This document shows positions 4,891-28,649 of a DNA stretch of 64,000 nt, piece by piece. The notes beneath the pieces were generated by a model. The model ran no database searches, was not told the origin of the DNA, and worked only from the letters and a program-made list of their open reading frames with translations. Source of the DNA: an uncultured Enterobacteriaceae bacterium. GTDB taxonomy: Bacteria; Pseudomonadota; Gammaproteobacteria; Eutrophobiales; Eutrophobiaceae. The position numbers were made by a program, and so were the translations under genes. The stretch lies in assembly GCA_964479045.1 (NCBI GenBank), contig CAYZJI010000002.1:51660-115659 (forward strand). The letters are read 5' to 3'. Numbering within the stretch: the stretch's first letter is position 1; every line of letters begins with the position of its first letter.

Positions 4891-5335
4891 AAATTCCTCT
4901 CAGTCATATTAAGTTAAATATAGACAAAACATGGACATAAAATTATATTAATATGATCATTAATTCAATAAATATTTGTATAACAAAGTTTATAAAAATC
5001 ATCTTGAAAAATGTAATTATTTTGTATAATACTTGTACAGGTTATTTATTGTACATAATTCGTATCATAAATTATCCATATCACACGAAGAATCAGGGAC
5101 TTAACAGGTTTTTCCCTTTGTGGTGGTGTTATTGGTTGTTTGATTTCCATCCGGGGGCGGGTCAAGACTGGCTGCCGAATACCCGCTAGAGGCAGTCGGG
5201 CTGACCACCCGGATGGACCTTTATTTACACTTTCCCCAGGTGTGGTCTATTTCAGAGATACGGTCTTATCGGTGATAATTACGCCAGTAGTTATTCACCT
5301 GTATTTGCCGCAACAGTGACCAAGCGAGAGTGTGC

Positions 5336-5860
5336 ATGACCACCCCGGAAACCTCATCAACGACTGTCAATCCCAGCGATAAACTGCACCAGCTCAACGT
5401 GACCTATTCCAACCGGGAAGATCGCTTGCTGTTGCGCGTCACCACACAGCAGGGTGATGAATACCGCCTGTGGATGTCACGGCGTTTTACCAACCTGTTG
5501 TTTAACGTACTTAAAAAGGAAATGGAAAAGCATGGCGGTGTCACCAGTGTGGGGGCAAGCAGGCAGGCGCAGGAGATGTTTAATGCAGGCGCATTCGAAA
5601 AATCATTCGAGCATGAAAAATCGATTAATCTGCCGTTGGGGGAAGAAGGTTTCCTCGCCTATGGAATCAAAACCCACAACAATCCCGGTGGTAATATGAG
5701 CCTGGAAATTTTCCCGGAAAAAGGACAGGGAATAAATCTGAACCTGAACCAGGGAATGCTCTATATGTTTTACAATCTCCTTTCACAGGGCATCATCCGG
5801 GCCGAATGGCACCGGAACATTGAGATGTTCCAGGAAGAAGCTTCACAGCATATCCATTAA
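5336..5860 (+). CDS. Hypothetical protein (no recognisable domain), first gene of a two-gene unit with the Ser/Thr kinase
   Basis: ATG at 5336 has a GAGAG Shine-Dalgarno 6 nt upstream; the track start at 5330 is a GTG. Stop is 16 bp before the kinase start. Confidence 0.5.
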   Translation: MTTPETSSTTVNPSDKLHQLNVTYSNREDRLLLRVTTQQGDEYRLWMSRRFTNLLFNVLKKEMEKHGGVTSVGASRQAQEMFNAGAFEKSFEHEKSINLPLGEEGFLAYGIKTHNNPGGNMSLEIFPEKGQGINLNLNQGMLYMFYNLLSQGIIRAEWHRNIEMFQEEASQHIH

Positions 5861-5876: not shown

Positions 5877-7406
5877 ATGGAACAACACCGCAATTCGCTG
5901 CAGCCCGGTTACCAACTGCATTGGTATCGCATCGAGCAAATACTGGGGCAGGGAGGTTTCGGCATTACCTATCTTGCCCACGATACCAATCTCAAACAGC
6001 AAGTCGCGATCAAGGAATATCTGCCGGTGGAACTGGCGGTGAGGGAAAAGAATATTTCCGTACATCCGGTTTCAGGCGAACATGGCATACAGTACAACTG
6101 GGGACTGGAACGATTCATCAATGAGGCGCAGACACTGGCGCGCTTCAAACATCCGAATATCGTCAGGGTATTGACCATATTCCGCGAGAACAATACCGCC
6201 TATATGGTCATGGAATATGAACAGGGACGGCCACTGCATGAAATCCTGAAAGCAAAAAAAACGCTGGATGAAGAGGAACTGAAAAAGATCATATTACCGG
6301 TCATGGAAGGATTACAGGCCGTCCATGCCGAGAACTTTATCCATCGTGACATCAAACCGCCGAATATATACATCCGTGAAGACGGCAGTCCGGTGCTGCT
6401 GGATTTCGGTTCAGCGCGCCAGTCACTTGCGGAACAGACCTTGACCATGACGGCGATGGTCTCGCCGGGTTATGCCCCGTTTGAACAGTATGTCAGCAAC
6501 AGCAAAAAGCAGGGTCCATGGTCTGATATCTACGGACTGGGGGCCACTCTGTATCGGGCGGTCACAGGTATCTCTCCACCGGACTCCATGAATCGCAGTG
6601 AAGCGATCCTGCATACAGGCAAGGATATATATGTACCGGCAGCCGAGATCGTGCCGGGGAAATATTCGCCACAGCTTATTGCGGCCATCGATCATGCCAT
6701 GGCCTTCAAACCGGAAGATCGTCCCCAAAACCTGGAGTCCTGGCGATCGGAAATGGAAGGCAATTATCAGGTCAAGGCTGAAAGTTCGCCGGTCACAAAT
6801 CCGGGTAGTGAAACGGTCACTGAGAAGGTTGAACGTGTAAATCATTCACAAACATTGCCGGCGGCCAGAGGCAAACCGGCAAAAATAATGACTGCTGTGG
6901 GGATCGGCCTGTTGGTGATTCTGGTGTTGATTGCGGTGAACCACAAAATCAAAAAAACCAATGCTGAATGGCGGGACGCTGCTGCGACGGCGGATGTCAC
7001 CGCACAAAAGCCCGAAGAGGTTAAGCTGCCTGCAGAAGAAGTGAAACCAGCTGAGCCTGAGCTGGCGCCGCCGCCATCTGCCCGGCAACAGGTGATCGCA
7101 GACAAGCCGGTTATCACTGAAACAGAGGGAGCTGTGCCAGAACAGGAACGCAAACGTCTACAGCGACTGCGGGACCGTGTCAGATCCCAACCCGGCGATC
7201 AGACTGTGCGTGAAGAGGTAAAAAGTACAGCAGCCAGAATTGATGCTGCCATAAAAAAAGCCCTCGAAAATGGAGATTACCAACTTGCCAGGAATTACAT
7301 TAATGAACTGAAAACGGTCATGGCGGACAACCCCAGGGCGCAAAAACGGCTGGATGAATTACTGAATAATATAGAACTCAGGGAAAAACAGGCGAAGGCA
7401 CGCTGA
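5877..7406 (+). CDS. Membrane-anchored Hanks-type Ser/Thr protein kinase with a C-terminal extracytoplasmic charged/helical domain
   Basis: Kinase motifs GQGGFG, VAIKEY, HRDIKPPNI and DFGSA. One TM helix (IMTAVGIGLLVILVLIAV) at about residues 337-356. Then a Pro/Glu/Lys-rich linker and a helical C-terminal domain. Confidence 0.8.
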   Translation: MEQHRNSLQPGYQLHWYRIEQILGQGGFGITYLAHDTNLKQQVAIKEYLPVELAVREKNISVHPVSGEHGIQYNWGLERFINEAQTLARFKHPNIVRVLTIFRENNTAYMVMEYEQGRPLHEILKAKKTLDEEELKKIILPVMEGLQAVHAENFIHRDIKPPNIYIREDGSPVLLDFGSARQSLAEQTLTMTAMVSPGYAPFEQYVSNSKKQGPWSDIYGLGATLYRAVTGISPPDSMNRSEAILHTGKDIYVPAAEIVPGKYSPQLIAAIDHAMAFKPEDRPQNLESWRSEMEGNYQVKAESSPVTNPGSETVTEKVERVNHSQTLPAARGKPAKIMTAVGIGLLVILVLIAVNHKIKKTNAEWRDAAATADVTAQKPEEVKLPAEEVKPAEPELAPPPSARQQVIADKPVITETEGAVPEQERKRLQRLRDRVRSQPGDQTVREEVKSTAARIDAAIKKALENGDYQLARNYINELKTVMADNPRAQKRLDELLNNIELREKQAKAR

Positions 7407-8920: not shown

Positions 8921-9952
8921 ATGAAGATTGTAATTGCGACGGATGCCTGGCATCCGCAGATCAATGGTGTGGTCCGCACCTATGAAAACATTGTGGAAAA
9001 CCTGCAGTTCAGTGGACATCAGGTGTCATTGATTACGCCGCAGGAATTTTTTACCGTTCCCTGTCCGACGTATACCTCTATTCATCTTGCGGTGATGCCG
9101 ACAGGCGGTGTCCGTAATCATCTGCAGGCCTTTGCGCCGGATGCCATTCATATTGCAACGGAGGGTCCCATCGGTCATGCGACACGTGCCTGGTGCCTTA
9201 AACACGATGTTCCGTTTACCACGTCATTCCATACCCGGTTCCCGGAGTATATCCGCATGCGCGTGCCGGTTCCCGTTAAATGGAGCTATGCCTATGTGAG
9301 GAATTTTCACAAGTACGCAAAGCGTACTTTGGCACCGACGCCTACACAGAAGCAGCGGCTGGAAGAATGGGGTTTCACCAATGTTGTGGTCTGGCCACGC
9401 GGCGTGAATACGAAGATATTTTACCCGCATTCACGCGACGTTCTGTACAAAAAAGCGCCGTTATTTGTCTATGCCGGACGTGTTGCAGTCGAAAAAAATA
9501 TAGAAGCGTTTCTGAAACTGGATTTGCCCGGTCAAAAACGTGTCATTGGTGACGGCCCGGACCTGAACAAGCTCAGGCAGAAATATACGGAGGTGGAATT
9601 TACCGGGTTTAAGACCGGCAGGGAACTTGCCGAAGCGATTGCCGAGGGTGATGTATTTGTGTTTCCGAGCCTTACCGATACCTTTGGTATTGTATTACTC
9701 GAAGCCATGGCGTGTGGTTTACCGGTGGCGGCATTCCCGGTAACCGGCCCGATCGATGTCATTGTCAACGGGTTAACCGGTGTGTTGGACCAGGACCTGC
9801 AGCGTGCGGCCCTCTCTGCACTGGAACTTAATCGCTTGGACTGCGTGCAGTTTGCCCGGGGTTATTCATGGGCAAGATGTGCGCAGATGTTTGTGGATTA
9901 TCTGGCACCACCTTGCACGACGTTTCCCGAGGAAACCTGCTCAATCAAATGA
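8921..9952 (+). CDS. Glycosyltransferase, GT1/GT4-family (RfaG-like)
   Basis: 343 aa. Typical N-terminus MKIVIATDAWHPQINGVVRTYENIV and C-terminal GT1 region (VFVFPSLTDTFGIVLLEAMACGLPV). Stop is 5 bp after the LpxH-like gene. Confidence 0.7.
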   Translation: MKIVIATDAWHPQINGVVRTYENIVENLQFSGHQVSLITPQEFFTVPCPTYTSIHLAVMPTGGVRNHLQAFAPDAIHIATEGPIGHATRAWCLKHDVPFTTSFHTRFPEYIRMRVPVPVKWSYAYVRNFHKYAKRTLAPTPTQKQRLEEWGFTNVVVWPRGVNTKIFYPHSRDVLYKKAPLFVYAGRVAVEKNIEAFLKLDLPGQKRVIGDGPDLNKLRQKYTEVEFTGFKTGRELAEAIAEGDVFVFPSLTDTFGIVLLEAMACGLPVAAFPVTGPIDVIVNGLTGVLDQDLQRAALSALELNRLDCVQFARGYSWARCAQMFVDYLAPPCTTFPEETCSIK

Positions 9953-10199
9953 TCTGCTGTATCAAGGTGAGACACGCTGTACTCTTCTGACGCGGTAGTG
10001 GCTCAGTTTTTCATCCCGAACGAATGTGATGGATCCTGATAGTTAAAAAATACAAGATTTCTCAGCCACTTCGTGGCTTCGAAATGACATCCTTTGTATG
10101 AAGAGTTTCAATTTGAGCGACTACCTTAAACGCTAATCATTGGTAATATTCAATAATATCTAATAAAGTATTGATATTCTATGATTAGCAGCCGCATAA

Positions 10200-12272
10200 A
10201 TGACCGATGCTGACAGTATAAAAAGCATACTTATCCTTGATGATGATATGGACTTCAGATTGCTCCTGAAGACCATACTCAGGAAGTATTTTCAGAATGC
10301 GGTATTTCATGAATATGATCCGGTCGCCCTCGGGGCTCCTGCGGAAGACTACGACTGGAGTCCGTATGATGTGCTCATTCTCGATTATTATCTCTGTGTA
10401 CACCGTCTGACCGGCCTCGATCTGTTGCAGAAACACCGCAAACGTCCGGGGTTCCCCGCCGCTATCATGTTGACAGGTGCTGGTACGGAGGAAACCGCCG
10501 TACGCGCCGTAAAATTCGGTGCTTATGAATATCTGCGCAAGGAAAAACTGGACAAGGCCGTGCTGGCGGCGTCCATTCTTGCAGCCTACAATAAACACGC
10601 TGATGAACGGATAAAGCGGGATGAAGCGGAAAAAGCCCGCAGTGTTTTTGACAAATCATCGTTTTACCGGCAACTGGAACAGCCGGCACATGAGGATCCG
10701 GCAACTCCCGCTCGTGTATTTCTGCTGTTTGATATCGACAATTACTCTTCCCTGACAGCATCACTGGGGCCTATCGGCAGTGATAATTTCGGTCGTGATC
10801 TGGCCCGTCTGATCTATGAACATCCTTCGATCAAGCAGGCAAACCCCTGCATTACCCGGCTGGGGGAATCTGCTGTCGGCGTACTGATCGATGCACCAGC
10901 AGATCATTCAGCGCTGGAACAATTTCTGGAAAATCTCTGCAGGTATCTTGCCGAAAAACCTTACCAGCTGTCTGGTAACACTATCCCCTGGACATTCAGC
11001 ATCGGGGCAGTAGAACCACAAGGGGCGTCCACTGTTGAAATGCTGCTCCAACAGGTCAATTCTGCACGCAATCTGGCAAGGGACGTCAGCGGTAATTCGT
11101 TTCATATCTATGCAGAAGGGGATGTAAAGAGTGAAAAACATACAGCCCCTGTACTGGCAACGAAGCCAGGGCCTGTCAGACCCGTCACAGACATTCCGCT
11201 TGAAGATGACGAAGAGGGTTTAGCGGTTGATCAAATTCCGGCGGCCCAGGAAACTGTCCCTGTTGTTCAGGTGGTTCCGGAACCTGTCACGGTTGTCCCT
11301 GCCGGGAAACAGGCACAGCCGGAACCCCTCCCTGCTAAAGTATCCGGATCCGGCAAAGAGACTGTCGCAGTTTCCGGAGACAAAAAATCTGCAGATACAA
11401 TTAAGGCAGCTGTAGATGAAAAAACAGAAGAACATGTACAGGGCCAGACAGGAGAACAGCCTGAAATTTACGAATCGGAACTGGGTGAACACTCTCTCAT
11501 AATAAAAAAAGCTTTTGATGACAATCGGGTCGTACAGACATTCCAGCCGGTCATCGCGATGTTCAGCGGAGGTGCGGGTGATGCGCACGAATTGTTCAAG
11601 GTGGATATCCAGTTAATTGACCTGCATGGAAAAGTGATGAGTGCCACAGAGTTGAGGGCCCATCTGAGTTCGTTGGCACTGCAGAAATTTATTGATCGCT
11701 GGATGTTAAGGCAATTGTTGGGACGGATCGTACATACAGCGAGAAAGGAAAACAGAAAAAGGTACCAGTTGCCGATAACCGAGGCATGGTTTACAGATAT
11801 CACCCTGTTTGACTGGCTGAAGAAACTCCTGGCCGGGCAGGAGGATAACAGGCCCGGCCGCTTTATAGTGCTGGAAATCTCGGCAGGCTTGTTTGCCCGT
11901 TATCAGGAGCGGGTTATGATACTCACCAAGACACTGAGGAAAACCTATGGTTTCAAAACAGCGCTCGGAAGTTTTGTTGACATCAATGAAGCAGTAAAAA
12001 TGGCCAGAATCCTGAAACCGGATCTTTTTGTTCTGGATTACAGCCTGCTATCAATGTTGAAGGGGGTTGCAACACCTGCAGGTAATGATATGAATTTGCT
12101 GAATTCACTCAAGTCAGCCGGGACACAGATCATCATCAGTGGTGTTGAAAGCGCCACAATCCTGACTGAAGTGATCAGCGCCGGTGCTGACTATGTATAT
12201 GGTAATTTTATTGGTGAGCCGCAAATAAATGCTGATGAGGCAAGCAATGTTGAGTCGTTCAGCCTGGGTTGA
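10200..12272 (+). CDS. Response regulator with degenerate GGDEF and EAL domains (FimX-like c-di-GMP receptor/enzyme)
   Basis: N-terminal receiver domain (ILILDDDMDFRL...DVLILDYYL). Central GGDEF-like region with RLGESAV in place of GGDEF. Pro/Val-rich linker. C-terminal EAL-like region (FQPVIAMFSG...ELFKV...DYSLLS) lacking several catalytic residues. Confidence 0.65.
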   Translation: MTDADSIKSILILDDDMDFRLLLKTILRKYFQNAVFHEYDPVALGAPAEDYDWSPYDVLILDYYLCVHRLTGLDLLQKHRKRPGFPAAIMLTGAGTEETAVRAVKFGAYEYLRKEKLDKAVLAASILAAYNKHADERIKRDEAEKARSVFDKSSFYRQLEQPAHEDPATPARVFLLFDIDNYSSLTASLGPIGSDNFGRDLARLIYEHPSIKQANPCITRLGESAVGVLIDAPADHSALEQFLENLCRYLAEKPYQLSGNTIPWTFSIGAVEPQGASTVEMLLQQVNSARNLARDVSGNSFHIYAEGDVKSEKHTAPVLATKPGPVRPVTDIPLEDDEEGLAVDQIPAAQETVPVVQVVPEPVTVVPAGKQAQPEPLPAKVSGSGKETVAVSGDKKSADTIKAAVDEKTEEHVQGQTGEQPEIYESELGEHSLIIKKAFDDNRVVQTFQPVIAMFSGGAGDAHELFKVDIQLIDLHGKVMSATELRAHLSSLALQKFIDRWMLRQLLGRIVHTARKENRKRYQLPITEAWFTDITLFDWLKKLLAGQEDNRPGRFIVLEISAGLFARYQERVMILTKTLRKTYGFKTALGSFVDINEAVKMARILKPDLFVLDYSLLSMLKGVATPAGNDMNLLNSLKSAGTQIIISGVESATILTEVISAGADYVYGNFIGEPQINADEASNVESFSLG

Positions 12273-12320
12273 TTTTTGGGCCGGGTCTGAACAAGGATCT
12301 CTGATGGAGAAGGTGAGAAA

Positions 12321-13910
12321 GTGAAAGCGGGCGCTGACAACAACTACTATATACATTACAACCTGTCCAGGGACCCTTTCCCCGTCACGGCCACCACTGA
12401 AAAAAAATTATTCATAAGCCACGATCTCGGCCAGAAATTACACGAGCTGAAATCGCTGATTCAGGAAAGCGAGAAAATAGTAGCGGTCACTGCACCAGTG
12501 GGTGGGGGCAAAACATCGCTGATTAACCAGATCGAGTTGCTGAAAGCGTCCAACTGGAAAACCAGTATCGTACGCGGCAATTCAAGCACCAGCATTGATC
12601 TGCTGGCCTATAATATTGCACGTCAGGCATCACAGGACAAAACTCCCGATCCAAGACCGCCGGTAAGCCAGGTACATAAATATCTGGAGCAATGTGCAAA
12701 CAACAAGATTATACCGGTGGTGATTGTTGATGATGCGCATATGTTGCCGGACAAGACACTTGAATTTGTCCTGCAGTTGGCCGAGCTCAGATATGGTGAA
12801 TCGCTGTTCCGGATTATTCTGCTGGCAGAGCCGTCAATAGAACGACGCCTTGCTGATCCGAAGTTTGCAGATCTTGTGCATGGGTTGATCGAGAGTATTT
12901 CCCTGCCGCCGGTTTCAAAAGAGAACATCAGGAATTACGTTGAACATAATCTTGCCCGTTATGGAACAATCAGTGAGTACCCGTTTATTGATGAAGACTT
13001 TGATTATATTTATGAACAGTCTGCCGGTTTGCCGAAAGCCATCAACCTGGCTGCCAGACAAATCATGCAGGAGCGCATCAGTAAAGATTCCATGCTCTCA
13101 CCGTATCGCTGGCCGATCATCGGTTTCGGGCTGGCTGCCCTGATCGGGATTGTTGCGTATTTTCTCTATCACAATCCATCCGTGCAGGTTGCCCGGCCAC
13201 AGAAACCGGTTGCTGCTCAAACCGCAGAACCGGAAGCCCGGGAAAAAACAGAGTCCGAAGCCGCCCCGATCACTGAAGCTCCTGTTACAGCAGAGATTGC
13301 TGAGAATGCTCCGGAAGAGATCCATCAGGGAACAATAAGTACGGAGGTTGTACCTACATCAGAAACTCTGCCGGAACCGGTTGTGACAGAAACGATAAGC
13401 GAACCTGTCGAAATTGCTGAACCGGTCAGCGTGGAACAGGAAACGCCTGCATCACCTGTGACCGAAGTTACAGCAGACATTGCAGCAGGGCCAGCACCCG
13501 TTGTTGAACCGGAACCATCACCACCGGCAATTGAACCAGTCTATGACGCTGCCAACATCTTCAAGCTCGATACGGTGCCGGATTATGTGCAGGGCATCAG
13601 GGGCGAGGACTGGCTGAGGCAGCAACCGGCAGGGGCCTATGCACTGCAATTGATCTCGGCCAGTGATCTGGCAAATATAGAGAAATTGCTTGCCGGTCAA
13701 TCCGGTTTTGTGGATCAACTTTCCGGCTATGTGAAATATACGCCTTCCGGGAAACCCCGATATCTGCTCCTGTATGGCCAGTATCCCGACAAGGAAACCG
13801 CCCAGATCGCCATCCAGGGCATGCCGGAACAGTTCCAGTCCGTGAATCCGTGGCCGCGCAGCATTGGCGACGTGGTGCAGGAAATAGACCAGGTCGGCAC
13901 ACGCCGTTAA
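12321..13910 (+). CDS. ExeA/GspA-like AAA ATPase with a TM segment and a C-terminal SPOR (peptidoglycan-binding) domain
   Basis: ExeA-like N-terminus (YNLSRDPF, Walker A APVGGGKTS, Walker B VVIVDDAHML). TM helix WPIIGFGLAALIGIVAYFLY. PEPV-rich linker. SPOR-like C-terminus (YALQLISASDLANIEKLLAG...YLLLYGQYPDKETAQ). Confidence 0.65.
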   Translation: MKAGADNNYYIHYNLSRDPFPVTATTEKKLFISHDLGQKLHELKSLIQESEKIVAVTAPVGGGKTSLINQIELLKASNWKTSIVRGNSSTSIDLLAYNIARQASQDKTPDPRPPVSQVHKYLEQCANNKIIPVVIVDDAHMLPDKTLEFVLQLAELRYGESLFRIILLAEPSIERRLADPKFADLVHGLIESISLPPVSKENIRNYVEHNLARYGTISEYPFIDEDFDYIYEQSAGLPKAINLAARQIMQERISKDSMLSPYRWPIIGFGLAALIGIVAYFLYHNPSVQVARPQKPVAAQTAEPEAREKTESEAAPITEAPVTAEIAENAPEEIHQGTISTEVVPTSETLPEPVVTETISEPVEIAEPVSVEQETPASPVTEVTADIAAGPAPVVEPEPSPPAIEPVYDAANIFKLDTVPDYVQGIRGEDWLRQQPAGAYALQLISASDLANIEKLLAGQSGFVDQLSGYVKYTPSGKPRYLLLYGQYPDKETAQIAIQGMPEQFQSVNPWPRSIGDVVQEIDQVGTRR

Positions 13911-13968
13911 TCCACTGCCGGGTAATTTCCCGGATAATTTCCCCTTAAATTCCCAAACAGCGCAATTC

Positions 13969-13982
13969 TTGATCTGGATCAT
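13969..13982. promoter_or_regulatory. FNR/ANR-type box TTGATctggATCAt upstream of hemN
   Basis: 13 of 14 matches to TTGAT-N4-ATCAA. Centre is about 61 bp upstream of the hemN ATG. hemN is a classic ANR/FNR target. Confidence 0.6.
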
Positions 13983-14036
13983 GTCAGCCTGATCCGGATT
14001 TTGTTAAACAGGCATTATTTGGAAACGAGTCCGATT

Positions 14037-15428
14037 ATGCCTGCTTCCGTTTTACTCGACAGGGAACTCATCAGCCGCTATGCGCGCTCAGGCCCGCGTT
14101 ATACGTCTTATCCAACGGCCGTCCAGTTTCATGACGGGTTCAACTGGGAACATTACGTGCATAACGCGCGTGAAACAAATGAAGACCTGATCCCGGCCGC
14201 ACTGTCATTGTATATCCACCTGCCGTTCTGCAGCCGGGTCTGTTATTACTGTGCCTGCAATAAAATTATCACGCGCAACCGCAATCTTGCCGCCCCTTAT
14301 CTTGCAGATTTGCATGAAGAGATCCGGTTGCAGGGTGAACTTTTCAACAAGGACCGTCTAGTTGAACAATTGCATTGGGGCGGGGGCACACCGACATTCA
14401 TCAGTCCCGCACAGATACGGGAACTGATGCAGGTCATCCGCCGGTATTTCACCCTGAGAGAGGATGACGGAGGAGATTATTCCATTGAGATCGATCCGCG
14501 TGAAGTGGATGAAGAAACCGTTTATCTGTTGCGCGAACTCGGGTTTAACCGGATGAGCATCGGGGTACAGGATTTTGATCCGTATGTACAGGAAGCAGTC
14601 AACCGTATTCAGACTGAAAAACAAACCTTTCAGGTCATGCAATCCGCCCGGAAAGCCGGGTTCAAATCCGTGAACATTGATCTGATTTACGGCTTACCCA
14701 GGCAAACAACCGCAAGTTTTCTCAGAACGCTGGAACTGATTGCCTTGCAACAGCCGGAACGGCTGGCTATCTATAATTATGCACACCTGCCGCACCTGTT
14801 CAAAACGCAGCGGCAGATTCATGCGGAAGAATTGCCGGGACCTGATGAAAAACTGGAAATCTTGCAGGAAACCATCCGCCACCTGCAGGCACAGGGTTAT
14901 ATCTATATCGGCATGGATCATTTTGCCCGTCCGGATGATGAACTCGCAGTTGCACAACGAAACGGTACCTTGCACCGGAATTTCCAGGGCTACACGACTC
15001 ACGCAAATTGTGATCTGATCGGTATGGGGATTACTGCCATCAGCAAGGTGGGGCAGTGTTATGCACAGAACGTACGCGCACTGGATGATTATAAACAGTC
15101 TGTTCAGTCAGGGCGAATACCGATCATGCGTGGTATCAAGCTGGATGATGATGATCTGTTGCGGCGCGAAGTCATTACCCGGCTTATCTGCCATTTTCGG
15201 CTCCGTTACGATGAAATAGAGGAAATTTATCACATCAATTTCCAGGATTATTTTTATAACGAATTAATCCAGCTGCAGGAAATGGAACAGTCCGGCCTGT
15301 TACAACTTGAAAATAACGGCATCACCGTATTGCTGCGAGGCCGGCTGCTAATCCGCAATATCTGCATGATATTTGATAAATACCTGCGTTCCGGCAGTGT
15401 GCAGGGCAATTATTCAAACTTGATTTGA
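14037..15428 (+). CDS. hemN: Oxygen-independent coproporphyrinogen III oxidase (radical SAM)
   Basis: CxxxCxxC in LYIHLPFCSRVCYYCACNK. About 463 aa from the ATG at 14037; the track start at 14001 is a TTG. Confidence 0.85.
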   Translation: MPASVLLDRELISRYARSGPRYTSYPTAVQFHDGFNWEHYVHNARETNEDLIPAALSLYIHLPFCSRVCYYCACNKIITRNRNLAAPYLADLHEEIRLQGELFNKDRLVEQLHWGGGTPTFISPAQIRELMQVIRRYFTLREDDGGDYSIEIDPREVDEETVYLLRELGFNRMSIGVQDFDPYVQEAVNRIQTEKQTFQVMQSARKAGFKSVNIDLIYGLPRQTTASFLRTLELIALQQPERLAIYNYAHLPHLFKTQRQIHAEELPGPDEKLEILQETIRHLQAQGYIYIGMDHFARPDDELAVAQRNGTLHRNFQGYTTHANCDLIGMGITAISKVGQCYAQNVRALDDYKQSVQSGRIPIMRGIKLDDDDLLRREVITRLICHFRLRYDEIEEIYHINFQDYFYNELIQLQEMEQSGLLQLENNGITVLLRGRLLIRNICMIFDKYLRSGSVQGNYSNLI

Positions 15429-16318: not shown

Positions 16319-16990
16319 CTAACTGCATTTTGATTCGCCGCAATTAAGGCAGGTCAGACAGCCGTCCATGAAAATCATGGCCCTGGTCATGCATTTCTTG
16401 CACAGGGTTGCTGTTTCCGGGAATTCGCCTTCCGGTATATTTTCGAGCTTCTCGCGCTTTTCCCGGATCAGTTTTTTCTGGTGAGTATCCGGCTCACTGG
16501 TTTTTAAAAGACCAATCATTTTCAGGTGACTTTCCAGCACATCTCCGATCTCGGCGACCAGTGACGGCATGAACTTGCCGCCTTTTTTGAAATAACCACC
16601 ATGCGGGTCGAACACGGAGCGAAGTTCATCCACGAGGAAGGTCACATCACCGCCCTTGCGGAACACAGCGGAAATGATCCGGGTCAATGCAACGATCCAC
16701 TGGAAATGGTCCATGTTTTTGGAATTGATGAAGATTTCAAACGGGCGCCGCAGTTCATGTGCGGTGCCTTCATTCAGGATAATGTCATTGATGGTGACAT
16801 ACAGTGCATGCTCTGACAGCGGTGTGGTGATCTTGTAGGTCGTGCCATGCAGCATGTGTGGCCGTTCCAGTTTCTCATGCATCTGCACAACATTGGTGGC
16901 AACAGGTAAAGCGGCTTCTTCAGTCTCCTTGACCACGCTGCAATCCACAATTTTCCGGTCAATCTTGATAGTCACCGTAATATTCCTCAA
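16319..16990 (-). CDS. nrdJb: Class II (adenosylcobalamin-dependent) ribonucleotide reductase, small C-terminal subunit NrdJb
   Basis: 223 aa directly downstream of nrdJa with a 4-bp overlap. C-terminal Zn-ribbon CKKCMTRAMIFMDGCLTCLNCGESKCS. The split nrdJa/nrdJb arrangement is the one known from Pseudomonas. Confidence 0.65.
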   Translation of the reverse strand: MRNITVTIKIDRKIVDCSVVKETEEAALPVATNVVQMHEKLERPHMLHGTTYKITTPLSEHALYVTINDIILNEGTAHELRRPFEIFINSKNMDHFQWIVALTRIISAVFRKGGDVTFLVDELRSVFDPHGGYFKKGGKFMPSLVAEIGDVLESHLKMIGLLKTSEPDTHQKKLIREKREKLENIPEGEFPETATLCKKCMTRAMIFMDGCLTCLNCGESKCS

Positions 16991-19137
16991 AATCTGGCGT
17001 AATAACCTTCTTTCAGGGCATCGTACAGATTGGCGGCGGTATGCAACTCGCCGTCGTATTCGATGACCTCATTGCCTTTGACCGTGATCACCTCGCCATT
17101 ATCCAATGTAAATCGATAAAGCGTGTTTTCAAGGTTTTCCTCCTTCACCAGGACGCCCTGGAACACTTCAGGATTGAAGCGGAAAGTCGTGCAGCCTTTC
17201 AATCCTTGTCCGTGTGCATAGAGGTAGATGTTTTTGAAATCAGCAAAGGGATAGTCCGCCGGGACGTTGGCAGTTTTGGAGATGGAGGAATCTATCCATT
17301 TCTGGGCCGCTGCCTGGATATCGACATGCTGTTTCGGAGTAATATCATCCGTAGTCACAAAATAATCCGGCAACCGGCGATCAGGATTTTCTGAACAGGG
17401 CAGGGCTTCAGGATTGATCAGGGTGCGATAAGCCAGCAGTTCAAATGAACAGACTTCCATTTTCTCCTTGGATTTCTTGCCGCAGCGGATCACGTTTCTC
17501 GAATACTGGTGTGAGAATGTCGGTTCGATGCCGTTGCTGACATTGTTTCCGAGCGACAGGGAAATCGTGCCGGTAGGGGCGATGGAACTGTGATGGGTGA
17601 AACGCGATCCGGTTTCTGCCATCTCATCGATGAGTTGAGGAGCAACTTCAGCGATGCGTTGCATGTAGCGGCTGTATCTTGCATGCAGCACCTTCCCCTG
17701 CACCATATCACCTTCCCTGTAACCGTCTTTTGCCAGTTCCGGCCGTATCTGCAACATTTCTTTTGTGATCGTGAAAGGTTCTTCCATGATTGGGGCAGGG
17801 CCTTTTTCTTTGGCAAGTTCCACTCCGGTTTGCCAGCCGACCAGGGCCAGTTCGCGACTCACCTGTTCGGTGAATTTGAGTGATGCCGGTTCGCCATACT
17901 TGATGCACAACATAGTGAGCGCAGAACCCAGGCCAAGAAACCCCATGCCATGACGGCGTTTGCGGAAAATTTCACGTCGTTGCAATTCCAGCGGCAGGCC
18001 GTTGATTTCCACTACGTTGTCCAGCATGCGGGTGAAAATTCTGACTACGCGCCGGTAAGTATCCCAATCGAACCCGGCTTTTTCAGTGAATGGCGCGACT
18101 ACAAATTTTGCAAGATTAATAGAACCCAGCAAACAGGCCCCGTAGGGCGGCAGTGGTTGTTCGCCGCAGGGATTGGTCGCGCGGATTTTTTCACAGTACC
18201 AGTTGTTATTGAATTCATTGACGCGATCGATGAGGATGAATCCGGGTTCTGCGTAGTCGTAGGTGGCATGCATGATCTCATCCCAGAGTTCGCGTGCGGA
18301 GATGGACTGGTAAATCCTGCAGGCCACTTCACCCTTGTCATTCACGATGTAGTCACGTTCCACCGGCCACTCGCGCCAGATGATTTGGTTGATGTCTGTC
18401 AGTTCGATTTTTTCTTTTTCGAGTTCCTGTTGTGTTACCGGGAATGCCAGTGGCCAGAGAGCATCTTCCCTCAGGGCCTGTAAAAAAGGTTCAGTGATCA
18501 ATAACGAAAGATTGAATTGACGCAAACGCCCTGCTTCGCGTTTTGACCGGATGAAATCCAGCACATCCGGATGGCCTATATCAAATGTTGCCATCTGTGC
18601 ACCGCGGCGGCCACCGGCGGATGAGATGGTGAAACACATCCTGTCGTAGATGTTCATGAAGGATAATGGGCCAGACGTATGCGCCCCGGCGCCGCATACA
18701 TACGCGCCTTTGGGCCGTAATGTGGAAAATTCGTAACCGATGCCGCAGCCTGCCTTGAGTGTCAATCCGGCTTCATGCAGTTTTCCGAGGATATCATCCA
18801 TGGAATCATGGATTGTGCCGGAGACTGTGCAATTGATGGTGGAAGTTGCCGGTTTATATTCTGTTGCGCCGGCATTGGAAATAATACGGCCCGCCGGGAT
18901 GGCGCCATGATGTAATGCCCAGAGAAATTCCTTGTACCAGTGATCACGCTTTTCAGGTATGCCTTCCAGATCGGCCAGCGTACGGGCCACGCGCTGATAA
19001 GTGGCATTGATGGACTGATCTACAGGATCCCCGTTCTGATCCTTGAGGCAATATTTTTGCTCCCAGATGTCCAGCGAGGTGGATTGCAGCGGGATTTCCG
19101 TAGATCCCGCAGGACTATTGATATTGGCGGTTTTCAA
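16987..19137 (-). CDS. nrdJa: Class II ribonucleotide reductase, large subunit NrdJa
   Basis: 716 aa. Conserved RNR active-site region NPCGEQPLPPYGAC and an N-terminal ATP-cone-like region. Confidence 0.75.
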   Translation of the reverse strand: MKTANINSPAGSTEIPLQSTSLDIWEQKYCLKDQNGDPVDQSINATYQRVARTLADLEGIPEKRDHWYKEFLWALHHGAIPAGRIISNAGATEYKPATSTINCTVSGTIHDSMDDILGKLHEAGLTLKAGCGIGYEFSTLRPKGAYVCGAGAHTSGPLSFMNIYDRMCFTISSAGGRRGAQMATFDIGHPDVLDFIRSKREAGRLRQFNLSLLITEPFLQALREDALWPLAFPVTQQELEKEKIELTDINQIIWREWPVERDYIVNDKGEVACRIYQSISARELWDEIMHATYDYAEPGFILIDRVNEFNNNWYCEKIRATNPCGEQPLPPYGACLLGSINLAKFVVAPFTEKAGFDWDTYRRVVRIFTRMLDNVVEINGLPLELQRREIFRKRRHGMGFLGLGSALTMLCIKYGEPASLKFTEQVSRELALVGWQTGVELAKEKGPAPIMEEPFTITKEMLQIRPELAKDGYREGDMVQGKVLHARYSRYMQRIAEVAPQLIDEMAETGSRFTHHSSIAPTGTISLSLGNNVSNGIEPTFSHQYSRNVIRCGKKSKEKMEVCSFELLAYRTLINPEALPCSENPDRRLPDYFVTTDDITPKQHVDIQAAAQKWIDSSISKTANVPADYPFADFKNIYLYAHGQGLKGCTTFRFNPEVFQGVLVKEENLENTLYRFTLDNGEVITVKGNEVIEYDGELHTAANLYDALKEGYYARF

Positions 19138-19184: not shown

Positions 19185-20492
19185 CTAGAAGCTCACCAGG
19201 GTGTAAAACCAGATTTTGCGAGTATCAAACGCGACAGGCCCGTTCGTCAGAAGGTTGATAGGATTGCTATCGGCGTTATAGTCCGCATATTTCAGTCCCA
19301 GGGTCAGGTATTGCCCGAATTTACGGCTGAGTTCCATGTCCAGTTCGTTACCGTAATCGTAATCCAGATGATCGGAACGCAAAGCGTGATAACTGATATT
19401 GAAATTAAAACCGTGTGTTGTCATCACAGACGTCACGAAATAGTCCCGGATGCCATCATTGGGCGTGACCAGAAAACGATCCGCCGTCCCCTGAAAGGCG
19501 TGATTGGTTCCAAGGATAGTAACGAAGGATCCGTTCACTGTGCCATCACCGCTCAGGCGTTCATAACTGAATTTCAACATCAGGCTGTCCAGTAATTGCG
19601 GCGGTTTGATTTTGAACCCGGCTTCCAGCAGTTGATAACTGGCATCGTAGTCGGTGGGATTTTCAGCATAATCCGACTGGTCGGCATATTCCGCAGTATA
19701 AATAGGCGTCAGCCAGTCACGCAGCGGATATTCACCATAAAGCCGCACACCCATCGTGCGTGATGAAAACCGCGCGGCTTTGTCAAAATCGAAGAGATAG
19801 GTATAGCCTTCCAGTTGTGCCCACTGGAAGCGTTTGTTCTGCAGATTGACGAAATGACTGTCGCTGTCGAAATTACTCAGAGGTTCAACGGCGGAAGTTC
19901 CGAAGATGCGATTCACGTTCCAGACATAGGCATAGGACAAACGTGTATCCTTGAACCAGGTATTGCTCAAACTCACTGCATCAAAGGTTTGCCAGTTTTG
20001 CCGCCAGAGAATGTTGCCGATAAACCGGTGAAATGGCGCTTCACGATAGGTAATGGCCTGCCGTCCAATGCGGATCTGGTTGGCGGCGGGCGCGAGGTAT
20101 TGCAGATAGCCCTGGTTCAGTTCCGTGCCGTCCGGATCAACCACCGTGGCATAACGGCTGGGCATGCCCAGCCCTTCGTTGAATTCTCCGCCGAAAACAC
20201 GGCTGACCTGTTCCAGTTCAAGAAATGCAGAGAAATCATGAAAAGCCCCGCTCTGGTAACTGACGGCCGTGCGCAGTGTGCTGGCATTGGCGTCCTTGAG
20301 CGGTACTCCGCCGGGACTGAAGTCATCTTCGACGTGCTCAAAACGGTAACGCAGATTGACCTTGAATTCGCCGGTAGTGATCGCATCACCCAGTGTATTT
20401 TCAGCCTGACTGATATTCAACATAGAGTTGAACACCAACAGCCCGGTGCACAAAGTCAGCCGGGATATATCATGTTTCCCGAGAGTAAACAT
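19185..20492 (-). CDS. Outer-membrane beta-barrel protein (alginate-export/porin-like), signal peptide
   Basis: Signal peptide MFTLGKHDISRLTLCTGLLVFNSMLNISQA. C-terminal aromatic residue (..FYTLVSF). Start placed at the second ATG (20492), which has a GGGGGA Shine-Dalgarno 6 nt upstream. Only 47 bp separate it from nrdJa. Confidence 0.55.
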   Translation of the reverse strand: MFTLGKHDISRLTLCTGLLVFNSMLNISQAENTLGDAITTGEFKVNLRYRFEHVEDDFSPGGVPLKDANASTLRTAVSYQSGAFHDFSAFLELEQVSRVFGGEFNEGLGMPSRYATVVDPDGTELNQGYLQYLAPAANQIRIGRQAITYREAPFHRFIGNILWRQNWQTFDAVSLSNTWFKDTRLSYAYVWNVNRIFGTSAVEPLSNFDSDSHFVNLQNKRFQWAQLEGYTYLFDFDKAARFSSRTMGVRLYGEYPLRDWLTPIYTAEYADQSDYAENPTDYDASYQLLEAGFKIKPPQLLDSLMLKFSYERLSGDGTVNGSFVTILGTNHAFQGTADRFLVTPNDGIRDYFVTSVMTTHGFNFNISYHALRSDHLDYDYGNELDMELSRKFGQYLTLGLKYADYNADSNPINLLTNGPVAFDTRKIWFYTLVSF

Positions 20493-20548
20493 ACCTGTCC
20501 CCCGCATTTTGTTTTGTTACAGCCTATTACAGACTTTTGCCGGTTGGC

Positions 20549-20647: not shown

Positions 20648-21916
20648 ATGGCGCCTTCCCAGACGTACAAACAGATTTCCATTCTGGCTTCCAGTACCTT
20701 TGCCTTCACCATTTGTTTTGCGGTATGGGTCATGTTCTCGATCATCGGCATTCCCATACGCGACACTCTCAATCTCAATGAAACCCAGTTCGGGTTACTG
20801 GCGGCAACACCGATCCTGACCGGCTCGCTGATCCGCCTGCCTATCGGTATCTGGACTGATCGACATGGTGGACGGATCGTATTTTTTCTGTTGATGCTCT
20901 CAACCATTGTTCCGATCTGGTTGATTTCCCGTGCCACGGAGTACTGGCACTTTCTGGTGCTGGGTCTGTTTGTCGGAGTCGCGGGCGGGGCATTTTCCGT
21001 CGGCATCGCCTATGTGGCACGCTGGTTCAGCCGTCCCCGCCAGGGTTTTGCCATGGGTATTTTCGGCGCCGGTAATGCCGGTGCGGCACTGACCAAATTT
21101 GTCGCGCCGACAATCGTGGTGGTATATGGCTGGCAGATGGTGCCTCGAGTGTATGCCATTGCCATGCTGGTCACTGCAATTCTGTTCTGGATGTTCACCT
21201 ATACCGACAAGAGTCATCAGGTTGGTCAGTCAGTCACACTGCGCCAGCAACTCAGCGCCCTGAAGGATCCGAACGTGTGGAAACTCTGCCAGTTTTATTC
21301 GATCGTATTTGGTGGTTATGTGGCCCTGTCTCTGTGGTTGACCAAGTACTACATCAATGAATACGGCTTCGGCATCCAGACGGCGGCATTGATCGCATCC
21401 ATCTTCGTTTTGCCTTCCGGCGTGATTCGCGCTGCCGGTGGCTGGATTTCTGATCGCTATGGCGCGCATCCGGTGACGTGGTGGGTGCTGCTGGTGTCAT
21501 GGGTGTGCCTGTTCTTTATGTCCTATCCGCAGACCGAAATGACCATCCAGACGATCAATGGGCCACTGACCTTCAGCATCGGCTTGAATGCGTGGATGTT
21601 CACGGCTTTACTTTTTGTTGTCGGCATTGCCTGGGGCTTCGGCAAGGCTTCGGTGTTCAAATACATCTCGGATGCGTACCCGGACAATATCGGAGTGATT
21701 TCCGGCATCGTCGGTCTGGCCGGTGGCATGGGTGGTTTCCTGCTACCCATCATGTTTGGCGCACTGGTCGACTTCACCGGTGTACGCTCCAGTATTTTCA
21801 TGTTGCTCTGGGGCGTGACGCTGGTGTCATTGATCTGGATGTACTGGACGGAAATTGTGCCTGCGCGCAGCGGACGCGGGACCGGTGCGGCGCCATTGGC
21901 CGCACAGCACGCCTGA
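20648..21916 (+). CDS. narK1: Nitrate/nitrite transporter, MFS NarK family
   Basis: 12-TM MFS with the G-x3-D-R-x-G-x-R motif (GIWTDRHGGR). First gene of narK1K2GHJI. AAGAGG Shine-Dalgarno. Confidence 0.8.
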   Translation: MAPSQTYKQISILASSTFAFTICFAVWVMFSIIGIPIRDTLNLNETQFGLLAATPILTGSLIRLPIGIWTDRHGGRIVFFLLMLSTIVPIWLISRATEYWHFLVLGLFVGVAGGAFSVGIAYVARWFSRPRQGFAMGIFGAGNAGAALTKFVAPTIVVVYGWQMVPRVYAIAMLVTAILFWMFTYTDKSHQVGQSVTLRQQLSALKDPNVWKLCQFYSIVFGGYVALSLWLTKYYINEYGFGIQTAALIASIFVLPSGVIRAAGGWISDRYGAHPVTWWVLLVSWVCLFFMSYPQTEMTIQTINGPLTFSIGLNAWMFTALLFVVGIAWGFGKASVFKYISDAYPDNIGVISGIVGLAGGMGGFLLPIMFGALVDFTGVRSSIFMLLWGVTLVSLIWMYWTEIVPARSGRGTGAAPLAAQHA

Positions 21917-21947
21917 TCATTACTAAAGTTCAAGAAGGAGCTGAAAG

Positions 21948-23366
21948 ATGAGCGTACAAATGGTTTCAGACAAACCCAAACTGGGAAGCGTGTTACGCAT
22001 CTGGACGCCGGAAGACAAGGCGTTCTGGGAACATCAGGGCAAGGCCATCGCCAACCTCAATCTCTGGATCTCCGTTCCCTGCCTGTTTCTTGCCTTTGCC
22101 GTATGGCAGTTGTGGAGTGTGGTTGCGGTCAATCTGAATACACTCGGTTTCACCTTCACACCCAATCAGCTGTTCTGGCTGGCCGCCGCACCGGCACTTT
22201 CCGGTGCAACCTTGCGGATTTTCTATTCATTCATGGTGCCCATCTTCGGCGGGCGTGAATGGACAGCCATCTCGACAGCCTCACTGCTGATACCCACGAT
22301 TGGTATCGGTATTGCGATACAGGATCTGTCGACCAGTTACTCCACATTTCTGATATTGGCATTGTTGTGTGGCTTCGGCGGTGGAAATTTTTCATCCTCC
22401 ATGGCCAACATCAATTTCTTTTTCCCCAAGGAACGCAAGGGATCGGCACTCGGTGTGAATGCCGGGCTTGGCAACCTTGGTGTATCTTCCGTACAGTTTC
22501 TGGCACCGCTGGTGATTGCGGCGGGTGTGTATGGTCCACTGGCTGGACCACCACAAACTATCATCAATCAAGCCGGACAGACTGTGAACATCTGGGCACA
22601 GAATGCCGCCTTTGTGTGGGTGCCTTTCATTATTATTGCCAGTCTGGCGGCATGGATAGGCATGAATGATATTGCCGATGCCAAAGCATCGTTCCGTGAT
22701 CAGGCGGTGATCTTCAAACGCAAGCACAACTGGATTATGTGCTGGCTCTATCTCGGGACCTTCGGTTCGTTCATCGGCTACTCCGCAGGTTTCCCTTTAC
22801 TCATCAAGTCACAATTTCCCGGCGTGAACGCATTGCAGTATGCGTGGATGGGCCCGCTGATTGGCGCAGTGATACGTCCATTTGGCGGGTGGTTGGCGGA
22901 CAAGCTGGGCGGAGCCATTGTGACCTTCTGGAATTTTATTGTGATGGCACTGGCAGTAGGTGGGGTGCTGTATTTCCTGCCGTCCGGTCCTTCGGGCGGA
23001 AGTTTTGCCGGATTCTTCCTGTGTTTTATGGTGTTGTTTCTCACGACGGGCATCGGCAATGGCTCAACCTTCCGCATGATCCCGGTGATCTTCATGACCG
23101 ACAGGCAACGTGCTGCTGCAGGCAAGGGCAAGGAAGCAGCAGAACAGGCGGTGAAAGAAGCCAACAAGGAAGCCGCCGCAGTCCTTGGTTTTTCGGGGGC
23201 CATTGGCGCCTACGGCGGATTTTTTATTCCAAAAAGTTATGGCACTTCGATCAGCTTGATGGGCGGCCCTGAAGGTGCGCTGTATTTATTCATTGTGTTT
23301 TATCTAAGCTGCATTTGCATTACATGGTGGTATTACGCTCGCAGGAATGCCGAAATGCCGTGTTAA
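21948..23366 (+). CDS. narK2: Nitrate/nitrite antiporter, MFS NarK family
   Basis: 472-aa MFS immediately upstream of narG. Confidence 0.8.
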   Translation: MSVQMVSDKPKLGSVLRIWTPEDKAFWEHQGKAIANLNLWISVPCLFLAFAVWQLWSVVAVNLNTLGFTFTPNQLFWLAAAPALSGATLRIFYSFMVPIFGGREWTAISTASLLIPTIGIGIAIQDLSTSYSTFLILALLCGFGGGNFSSSMANINFFFPKERKGSALGVNAGLGNLGVSSVQFLAPLVIAAGVYGPLAGPPQTIINQAGQTVNIWAQNAAFVWVPFIIIASLAAWIGMNDIADAKASFRDQAVIFKRKHNWIMCWLYLGTFGSFIGYSAGFPLLIKSQFPGVNALQYAWMGPLIGAVIRPFGGWLADKLGGAIVTFWNFIVMALAVGGVLYFLPSGPSGGSFAGFFLCFMVLFLTTGIGNGSTFRMIPVIFMTDRQRAAAGKGKEAAEQAVKEANKEAAAVLGFSGAIGAYGGFFIPKSYGTSISLMGGPEGALYLFIVFYLSCICITWWYYARRNAEMPC

Positions 23367-23379
23367 TGAGGTTACGATC

Positions 23380-27129: not shown

Positions 27130-28649
27130 AAATCCGTGCCCAGATTGGAATGGTCCTGAATCTCGACAAATGTATCGGGTGTCATACCTGTTCCGTGACA
27201 TGTAAAAACGTATGGACGTCACGCGAAGGTATGGAGTACGCATGGTTCAATAATGTTGAAACCAAGCCGGGCATCGGTTATCCGAAGGAGTGGGAAAACC
27301 AGGACAAATGGAATGGCGGCTGGGTGCGCAAACAAAATGGAAAAATCGAGCCGAAGCAGGGCGGCAAGCTGGCTGTCCTCATGAAGATCTTTGCCAACCC
27401 GAATCTGCCACAGATTGATGATTATTACGAACCTTTCACATTTGACTATCAGCACCTGCATACGGCGCCAGAAATGAAAGCGGCACCGGTGGCCCGGCCA
27501 CGTTCGCTGATTTCCGGAGAACGCATGGAAAAAATCGAATGGGGCCCGAACTGGGAAGAAATTCTCGGCGGTGAATTTTCCAAACGCTCAAAAGATGCAA
27601 ATTTCGAGGATGTGCAGAAGGACATCTACGGACAGTTTGAAAATACCTTCATGATGTATCTGCCACGTTTATGTGAGCATTGTCTGAATCCCACCTGTGT
27701 GGCTTCCTGTCCGTCCGGGTCAATCTATAAACGCGAAGAAGACGGTATTGTGTTGATCGATCAGGACAAGTGCCGCGGCTGGCGCATGTGTGTGTCCGGC
27801 TGTCCCTACAAGAAAATCTATTACAACTGGTCGACCGGCAAGGCGGAAAAATGCATATTCTGTTATCCGCGCATTGAAGCCGGGCAACCCACAGTGTGTT
27901 CTGAAACCTGTGTGGGACGCATCCGCTATCTTGGCGTATTGCTTTATGACGCCGATCGCATCGAACAGGCTGCAAGTGTTGCCAATGACAAGGATTTGTA
28001 CAAGGCGCAACTGGGTGTGTTTCTCAATCCGGACAATCCGGTGGTGATTGAACAGGCGCGCAAGGACGGAGTGCCGGAATCATGGCTGACGGCAGCAAAA
28101 GCATCCCCGGTTTACAAAATGGTGATGGAGTGGAAAGTGGCACTGCCACTGCATCCGGAATACCGCACCTTGCCGATGGTCTGGTATGTGCCGCCCTTGT
28201 CACCTATCACAGCGGCCTCGAACTCCGGTCAGGTCAGTGCCTTCGGTCAATTACCGGACGTGCGCAGTCTGCGTATACCGCTCAAGTATCTCGCCAATCT
28301 GTTGACCGCCGGTGATGAAGAACCGGTGGCTGCAGCACTGGAGCGCATGCTGGCCATGCGCGCCTATATGCGTGATCGGCATGTTGAAAAGAAAGAAAAC
28401 AGCGCAGTGCTCGAACAGGTTGGCATGAGTGTGCAGGAAATCGAAGAAATGTATCGTTATATGGCGATTGCCAATTATGAGGATCGTTTTGTTATCCCGA
28501 CAGCCCACCGTGAATATGCTGAGAATGCCTTTGATCTGCGCGGCGGCTGCGGGTTCTCGTTTGGTAATGGCTGTTCCGATGGCATCTCCAGCCCCGGACT
28601 GTTCGGCGGCAAAAAGAAAAAAGTAATTCCCATCAAGGCGGCAAGCTGA
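27126..28649 (+). CDS. narH: Respiratory nitrate reductase beta subunit (Fe-S)
   Basis: MKIRAQIGMVLNLDKCIGCHTCSVTCKNVWTSREG is near-identical to the E. coli NarH N-terminus. ATGA overlap with narG. Confidence 0.95.
   Translation: MKIRAQIGMVLNLDKCIGCHTCSVTCKNVWTSREGMEYAWFNNVETKPGIGYPKEWENQDKWNGGWVRKQNGKIEPKQGGKLAVLMKIFANPNLPQIDDYYEPFTFDYQHLHTAPEMKAAPVARPRSLISGERMEKIEWGPNWEEILGGEFSKRSKDANFEDVQKDIYGQFENTFMMYLPRLCEHCLNPTCVASCPSGSIYKREEDGIVLIDQDKCRGWRMCVSGCPYKKIYYNWSTGKAEKCIFCYPRIEAGQPTVCSETCVGRIRYLGVLLYDADRIEQAASVANDKDLYKAQLGVFLNPDNPVVIEQARKDGVPESWLTAAKASPVYKMVMEWKVALPLHPEYRTLPMVWYVPPLSPITAASNSGQVSAFGQLPDVRSLRIPLKYLANLLTAGDEEPVAAALERMLAMRAYMRDRHVEKKENSAVLEQVGMSVQEIEEMYRYMAIANYEDRFVIPTAHREYAENAFDLRGGCGFSFGNGCSDGISSPGLFGGKKKKVIPIKAAS

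Follow-up and report, generated by a model that had tools for sequence, protein, structure and literature searches.

In the 64,000-nucleotide stretch of DNA from an uncultured Enterobacteriaceae bacterium analysed here (the window), two neighbouring genes encode proteins that we call RGE and AAA-SPOR. RGE, the product of 10200..12272 (+), is a 690-aa response-regulator-type protein in which a receiver (REC) domain and a degenerate GGDEF domain are followed by a disordered linker and an EAL domain that is of the FimX type and likewise degenerate, as assigned from the open reading frame, Pfam, a family alignment and an AlphaFold2 model. AAA-SPOR, the product of 12321..13910 (+, GTG start), is a 529-aa bitopic membrane protein of the PA5037/DamX-like type according to its reading frame, Pfam and homologue alignments. 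Both proteins are thus recognisable, RGE as a FimX-related variant and AAA-SPOR as a member of the PA5037/DamX-like family, and the pair is not a new system. Our data suggest tentatively, with a probability that we put just short of even, that the two are functionally linked and act together in this lineage, most plausibly via the receiver, because RGE-type proteins and the AAA-SPOR subfamily are neighbours in two arrangements in two clades. Any such coupling is a facultative, lineage-specific elaboration that is universal in neither family. Only a few uncultured lineages have the pairing, and the recurrent linkage of receiver and AAA-SPOR is a modest, testable lead.

A first-pass annotation, made from the sequence alone, had described a 690-aa protein and, directly downstream, an ATPase within 10200-13910, and both reading frames are indeed there. 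The 48-nt spacer between them (12273..12320, +) contains a Shine-Dalgarno-like GGAGAAGG at 12306-12313, 7 nt before the GTG start. A scan of 9800-14200 found no plus-strand terminator between the genes, and the terminator and promoter matches in that region were at chance level only. From the short gap, the Shine-Dalgarno-like site and the lack of a plus-strand terminator we infer that the two genes are probably co-transcribed.

Neighbourhoods of the two families

The first of the two arrangements is that of the window itself, which recurs at the nearest relative, locus L063, with the same order of RGE and AAA-SPOR and with 49% and 44% identity, respectively. The second is found in a 'short-N' clade of AAA-SPOR proteins (35-42% identity, often two SPOR domains). 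Here a gene that we call REC-X abuts or overlaps the start of AAA-SPOR in L064/L073, L070, L071, L072 and L078, and REC-X is predicted from this layout to be translationally coupled to AAA-SPOR. In L091 the upstream gene shows the coiled-coil C-terminal part only, because the contig ends there. The REC-X genes lie at L064:8387-10000, L070:6279-7979, L072:6511-7929, L078:876-2156 and L091:2-967. Their receiver is 50-57% identical to that of RGE, carries the same unusual insertion and aligns with it in hhalign at E 1e-45, while the rest of the protein has no GGDEF-EAL and consists of an extended, repetitive coiled coil and acidic DELLDPG repeats. Additionally, L070, L071 and L074 encode, ~2.3 kb downstream of AAA-SPOR and on its strand, a short RGE paralogue of 578-594 aa, which combines this receiver subtype with a degenerate GGDEF and an EAL of the RGE/FimX type (98-114 bits).

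These short paralogues belong to a family of 565-594 aa proteins that have the RGE-type receiver, the degenerate GGDEF and the RGE/FimX-type EAL without the long linker (L070:12226-14010, L071:6056-7792, L074:3521-5257; also L056-L059 and L062). REC-X itself cannot be viewed as an RGE with a decayed GGDEF-EAL part, since hhalign aligns the receiver alone, so that the output domain is a different one. Nor do the REC-X receivers nest with those of the window and L063, their identity to all RGE receivers being 53-59%. Many of the AAA-SPOR proteins coupled to REC-X combine two tandem SPOR domains with a degenerate Walker A motif (SPASSDKD).

One would argue that two unrelated housekeeping or regulatory genes have come to stand side by side in the window by chance. 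AAA-SPOR would then be a DamX-like divisome accessory displaced from aroKB and RGE an orphan response regulator that has its real partner, in most relatives, in a cNMP-binding protein, and a rearrangement would have put a block of Ser/Thr kinase (STK), nitroreductase, Metallophos, GT4 and RGE genes between mtnBDC and AAA-SPOR. We regard this as a serious competitor, only slightly less probable than the link, and a considerable part of our observations weighs on its side and against a functional link. The RGE family is found in numerous uncultured Gammaproteobacteria, with 80 protein clusters, and its neighbourhoods were surveyed at 62 loci, among them 59 from a scan of GTDB species-representative genomes. 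An AAA-SPOR gene within 10 kb was found at 0 of the 59 genome-scan loci, and at none of L001-L003 either. The usual neighbour of RGE is instead a ~210-aa protein with a cNMP-binding domain, encoded on the same strand directly upstream or downstream at 40 of the 62 loci and separated from RGE by 30-216 nt in 39 of these 40; the window contains no homologue of it. At L063 the adjacency need not mean function, because the whole six-gene block, unrelated genes included, is syntenic: this locus keeps mtnBDC and the series STK-nitroreductase-Metallophos-GT4-RGE-AAA-SPOR in its entirety, and not the pair alone. Upstream of AAA-SPOR at seven further loci of this subfamily lie unrelated genes, among them trpBA, mtnBDC-Rap1a and an M28 peptidase. 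In the P0099 genome, AAA-SPOR directly follows mtnBDC-Rap1a without any RGE, which suggests that the STK-to-RGE block came to stand between mtnBDC and AAA-SPOR in the window lineage only. Metallophos and GT4 genes lie near RGE in L003 too, where AAA-SPOR is absent. Furthermore, REC-X has only the receiver in common with RGE, genes for a histidine kinase, a pilus or a secretin are not found near the pair, and the 64-kb window as a whole has no pilus, secretin, type II secretion system (T2SS) or other secretion genes. PilB, PilZ or other pil genes are equally absent from the window and from the recurrent neighbour clusters of the 62 RGE loci.

What speaks against chance is the second clade. There, the same receiver subtype appears to be translationally coupled to AAA-SPOR, an RGE paralogue is once more found no further than ~2.3 kb away from it, and it is unlikely that two different arrangements joined the same two families by accident. 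The functional link therefore keeps its place as a tentative reading, but the pair is not a conserved system in the sense that a check of neighbourhoods could have revealed: it is present in the nearest relative, appears in altered form in one other clade, and is missing from the loci of the genome scan.

The frequent partner of RGE deserves a remark of its own. The cNMP-binding protein (L003:12537-13172 and 39 other loci, L004-L053) has a C-terminal PF00027 domain and an uncharacterised N-terminal part of ~90 aa, and together with RGE it looks like a conserved, undescribed two-gene module built around a REC-GGDEF-EAL protein. We considered whether its N-terminus is an MshEN domain of the PilB/MshE type and rejected this, as Pfam gives cNMP_binding only, along with a sub-threshold DUF4388.

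Domains and residues of RGE

Pfam recognises three domains in RGE: REC at aa 10-116 (53.8 bits), GGDEF at 152-293 (24.5 bits, cutoff 23.8) and EAL at 435-674 (64.7 bits). The AlphaFold2 model, calculated from a 20-sequence alignment, has a mean pLDDT (per-residue confidence) of 75.8 and the same three confident domains, namely REC at 1-118, a GGDEF fold at 150-305 and an EAL barrel at 425-670. In the model a long helix (119-149) joins the receiver to the GGDEF fold, and the V/E/P/A-rich linker of ~110 aa at 311-418 (11130..11453, +), delimited by the family alignment and the model, is disordered; its length and sequence vary widely between homologues.

The receiver (10227..10547, +; Pfam and family alignment) represents a distinctive subtype with an 'EYDPxxxGxPxxD[FY]DWSxYDVLILDYYLC' insertion. 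Its residues D14/D15, D62, T92 and K114 show no variation among 20 homologues and align with the acidic pocket, the phospho-acceptor Asp, the Thr and the Lys of RocR and of an OmpR-type regulator from the window. The receiver is thus predicted to be canonical and phosphorylatable, and the first-pass annotation was right in calling it intact.

The degeneration of the GGDEF domain (10653..11078, +; Pfam, alignment and model) at R-L-G-E-S-A-V, also proposed earlier, was confirmed by alignment as to both its location and the loss of residues. GG[DE]EF is replaced by G-E-S-A-V at aa 222-226, which aligns with G-D-S-I-F of FimX. The substrate-binding residues of the FK..ND motif (K/N/D) are lost and the RxxD I-site is absent from the alignment, its place being taken by KQAN, while D-I-D at 178-180 is kept.

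For the EAL domain (11502..12221, +; alignment, profile and Foldseek) the RGE family was aligned with RocR, MucR, FimX and the canonical REC-EAL protein of locus L064. In RocR numbering, Q161 (Q449 of RGE), E265 (E559) and E355 (E650) are retained, and RGE also keeps D499-R500-W501. Lost are E175K, L177D, R179Q, N233P, E268A, D295G, D296S, K316V, E352S and Q372Y. As only two of the eleven canonical catalytic residues are left, RGE should not be able to act as a phosphodiesterase, and with its GGDEF domain also degenerate it is predicted neither to make nor to hydrolyse cyclic di-GMP (c-di-GMP). The claimed loss of catalytic EAL residues was therefore correct, whereas the motifs on which it had been based were misplaced. 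It is K467-V468-D469, and not 'ELFKV', that aligns with the E-A/V-L triplet of FimX, RocR and MucR. Similarly, 'DYSLLS' stands not at DDFGxGYSS but further downstream, opposite the (K)xD(R)xF motif (K316-L-D318 in RocR, V611-L-D613 in the window), and the DDFG position is occupied by G590-S591-F592.

Several comparisons indicate that the EAL domain of RGE is specifically of the FimX type at the domain level, as far as sequence and model tell. The only PDB sequences that match this region are FimX of Pseudomonas and Xanthomonas (E 1.8e-12 to 3e-4), and the EAL profile of the RGE family scores FimX at 90.7 bits versus 13.8 for RocR, 8.4 for MucR and 7.7 for the L064 REC-EAL protein. When the single EAL domain was submitted to Foldseek, the FimX EAL was the best match (TM-score 0.80-0.81, 23-24% identity), and active EAL domains reached a TM-score of ~0.75 and 17-18% identity. 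RGE and FimX share the FQPVI and IDRW motifs.

It is tempting to see in RGE a true FimX-type receptor of c-di-GMP, in which Q471 takes over from the EALxR arginine and which signals to AAA-SPOR or to a pilus ATPase. We consider this unlikely. FimX contacts c-di-GMP through L477, R479, D507, F652, E654 and Y673 (PMC3527489). Four of these six residues (L477, R479, F652 and Y673) are D, Q, G and N in RGE, which weighs both against a receptor and against the functional link of the pair, and only the equivalents of D507 (D499) and E654 (E650) survive. Mutation of the FimX EVL triplet to AAA abolishes c-di-GMP binding and function (PMC5595344); in RGE the triplet is KVD, and it is unconserved across the RGE family. 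The absent I-site and the lack of a PilB or PilZ gene in the window point in the same direction. On the other hand, the EAL is of the FimX type, the YQP glutamine (Q449) is kept together with D499 and E650, and the organism does have c-di-GMP enzymes (window 55809-59630). Because Q471, which stands in place of R479, is conserved in 17 of 20 homologues, some ligand may still be bound. Of the 'c-di-GMP receptor of FimX type' proposed initially, the degenerate FimX-type EAL thus stands and the receptor role does not find support.

AAA-SPOR and a possible signalling route

In AAA-SPOR, Pfam finds an AAA_22 domain at aa 49-177 (58.9 bits) and a SPOR domain at 437-509 (24.3 bits, cutoff 21). The AAA_22 P-loop domain (12465..12851, +; Pfam and family alignment) is predicted to be cytoplasmic. 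Its Walker A motif reads A-P-V-G-G-G-K64-T, with K64 invariant in the family alignment, and its Walker B motif V-I-V-D137-D138-A-H lacks the catalytic Glu, like that of PA5037 (VDDAE); the alignment also reveals an N-terminal Y..Y.L..DPFP motif. A single transmembrane helix is predicted at aa 264-282, WPIIGFGLAALIGIVAYFL (13110..13166, +; 2.08 in a Kyte-Doolittle 19-residue window), and an acidic E/P/A/V-rich linker sits between this helix and the SPOR domain.

The SPOR domain, predicted to be periplasmic (aa ~426-518; 13596..13874, +; Pfam, structure match and alignment), exceeds the Pfam cutoff and matches the structure of the E. coli DamX SPOR domain (2lfv, E 6e-8), so that its earlier recognition as SPOR holds. 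Septal localisation of DamX needs Q351, S354 and W416, with the basic K418 alongside (PMC6895207). These residues correspond to Q443, S446, W511 and R513 of AAA-SPOR, the first three of which are invariant and the last nearly invariant in the family, where the whole SPOR domain is very conserved. The alignment thus indicates that AAA-SPOR keeps the residues that DamX needs to bind denuded septal glycan.

A known homologue is P. aeruginosa PA5037 (PA14_66580), the sequence of which was taken from the supplement of PMC9712689. It aligns end-to-end with the AAA-SPOR family profile (hhalign probability 99.9%, E 1.2e-33, columns 5-528 versus residues 1-543), and AAA-SPOR is by this alignment a full-length homologue of PA5037. 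PA5037 is annotated as an ExeA-type ATPase with SPOR and is treated as the Pseudomonas homologue of DamX, and the JGI labels for AAA-SPOR homologues likewise read 'ExeA / DamX'. The idea that a peptidoglycan-binding domain was newly swapped for SPOR must be abandoned, because the architecture is already established in PA5037/DamX-like proteins. The description as an ExeA/GspA-like ATPase is justified for the AAA_22/COG3267 domain, the transmembrane helix and the topology with a peptidoglycan-binding domain; the likeness goes no further than the AAA_22/COG3267 level, and neither PF01471 in AAA-SPOR nor a GspB-like gene or a secretin was found in the window. AAA-SPOR also cannot be taken as an equivalog of ExeA, of the XrtA-associated TIGR03015 or of E. 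coli DamX, all scores being far under the curated cutoffs. Its best NCBIfam match is the PEP-CTERM-associated ATPase TIGR03015, with 83.8 bits versus a cutoff of 324.5.

If RGE and AAA-SPOR are functionally linked, it could be that AAA-SPOR gathers via its SPOR domain at the division septum, and hence at the new pole, and that its cytoplasmic AAA_22 domain offers a docking or nucleotide-switch platform. RGE would be phosphorylated on D62 by a kinase, and its FimX-type EAL would then serve as a protein-interaction, possibly weak nucleotide-binding, module, through which RGE would act on AAA-SPOR or be positioned by it. To judge from FimX and PA5037, the downstream target would most likely be a polar or septal machinery, either of the envelope or of the type IV pilus. 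In PA5037 mutants twitching is reduced and polar pili are fewer, whereas the PilQ multimers are normal (PMC6321873). The earlier suggestion of a polar or septal system for a pilus or secretion machine accordingly keeps one foothold, the influence of the PA5037 homologue on the number of polar pili, and lacks the other, as no pilus or secretion genes lie in the window.

A bolder version would make the pair part of an unrecognised signalling module, in which one receiver subtype, fused either to a FimX-type dead GGDEF-EAL or to a coiled coil, docks on the P-loop domain of AAA-SPOR and its phosphorylation controls recruitment to the septum or new pole, for example of the type IV pilus machinery. 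We think this improbable, though it would offer a way into the mechanism behind the so far unexplained pilus phenotype that PA5037 mutants show. The functional link in its plainer form would already tie phosphorelay signalling to a family of SPOR-anchored membrane ATPases and would bear on PA5037, whose loss lowers the number of polar pili and leaves secretin assembly intact. The link would further define a FimX-related family with a working receiver from which the canonical c-di-GMP pocket has been lost, and would thus help to show how dead EAL domains turn, in the course of evolution, from receptors of nucleotides into pure interaction modules.

Window context and comparison with known systems

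The pair is embedded in the order GT4-RGE-[AAA-SPOR]-hemN, and the remainder of the window is ordinary chromosome, with mtnBDC, Ser/Thr kinase, nitroreductase, Metallophos, GT4, hemN, PhyH, ribonucleotide reductase, NarK-NarGHJI, NnrS, MCP, DegP-like protease, EF-G, sulfite reductase, pyruvate kinase, PAS-GAF-GGDEF-EAL and SSB genes. The Ser/Thr protein kinase (5877-7406, +) has a transmembrane segment and a C-terminal helical region. It is found in the same RGE block in L063 (L063:3045-4940), where the kinase domain is 81% identical, and a kinase 58% identical to it follows an RGE-type receiver at L060:3100-3990. This kinase may feed into the receiver pathway, or its position may reflect plain synteny. 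The methionine-salvage genes at 515-2384 (+; Aldolase_II, ARD and HAD hydrolase) are syntenic with L063 too.

The PAS-GAF-GGDEF-EAL gene (55809-59630, -) encodes a 1273-aa protein with several PAS domains and strong domain scores (GGDEF 138.8 bits, EAL 207 bits), the cyclase half of which may be inactive, since its GGDEF signature reads GGDKF in the alignment. At 16319-19137 (-) the gene for a 716-aa ribonucleotide reductase large subunit overlaps by 4 nt with the reading frame after it, which encodes a TSCPD domain separately in 223 aa; the two resemble a class II-type enzyme that has been split. The respiratory nitrate reductase cluster at 20648-31993 encodes NarGHJI, two NarK-type MFS transporters and a PpiC-type rotamase, next to an NnrS gene that is read divergently, and it points to a nitrate-respiring gammaproteobacterium as the host. 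Three reading frames had no Pfam match at E 1e-4: 19185-20507 (-, 440 aa), 2374-2841 (-, 155 aa) and 5330-5860 (+, 176 aa).

Compared with known systems, AAA-SPOR shares with PA5037 the AAA_22 P-loop domain, the single transmembrane helix, the low-complexity linker and the C-terminal SPOR domain, at an identity of ~27%. The genomic setting differs. PA5037 lies downstream of (pilMNOPQ-)aroK-aroB, as do two distant AAA-SPOR relatives (L088, pilMNOPQ-aroK-aroB-[AAA-SPOR]; L090, aroK-aroB-..-[AAA-SPOR]-gltB-gltD-hemE), whereas the AAA-SPOR gene of the window stands between RGE and hemN. E. coli DamX resembles AAA-SPOR in the conserved Q351, S354 and W416 of its SPOR domain, but its cytoplasmic part has no AAA_22 ATPase domain. 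ExeA/GspA of Aeromonas and Vibrio and MshM have the same plan of a cytoplasmic AAA_22 domain (COG3267), one transmembrane helix and a periplasmic peptidoglycan-binding module. ExeA, however, uses a PF01471 peptidoglycan-binding domain and an ExeB/GspB partner, and its Walker B motif has DE in place of the DD of AAA-SPOR. Moreover, ExeA assembles the T2SS secretin, whereas the PA5037 mutant forms PilQ multimers normally.

RGE is best compared with FimX (PA4959 of P. aeruginosa; XAC2398 of Xanthomonas citri). Each has ~690 aa and begins with a REC domain, after which come a GGDEF and an EAL that are both degenerate; the GGDEF motif is RFGDSIF in FimX and RLGESAV in RGE, and the EAL of FimX is the closest solved homologue of the RGE EAL. 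FimX has a REC-PAS-GGDEF-EAL architecture, in which the REC is not phosphorylatable and the EAL binds c-di-GMP (PMC8389850). In contrast to the FimX REC, which lacks the phosphorylation site, that of RGE is canonical. FimX has a PAS domain, for which RGE gives no Pfam match, and in the model the 119-149 helix of RGE runs straight from REC into the GGDEF fold. FimX is also without the long, disordered GGDEF-EAL linker. It binds c-di-GMP at nanomolar affinity through EVL, R479, F652 and Y673, contacts that RGE does not have, and it works with PilB and PilZ, of which there are no genes near RGE. Because the receiver is intact, the PAS domain missing and four of the six c-di-GMP contacts lost, RGE is on sequence grounds not a FimX orthologue. 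A broader parallel is offered by YdiV/STM1344, CsrD and the LapD class, whose EAL folds likewise lack catalysis and serve as receptors or interaction modules: LapD retains the residues that bind c-di-GMP, while YdiV-type domains have lost binding entirely.

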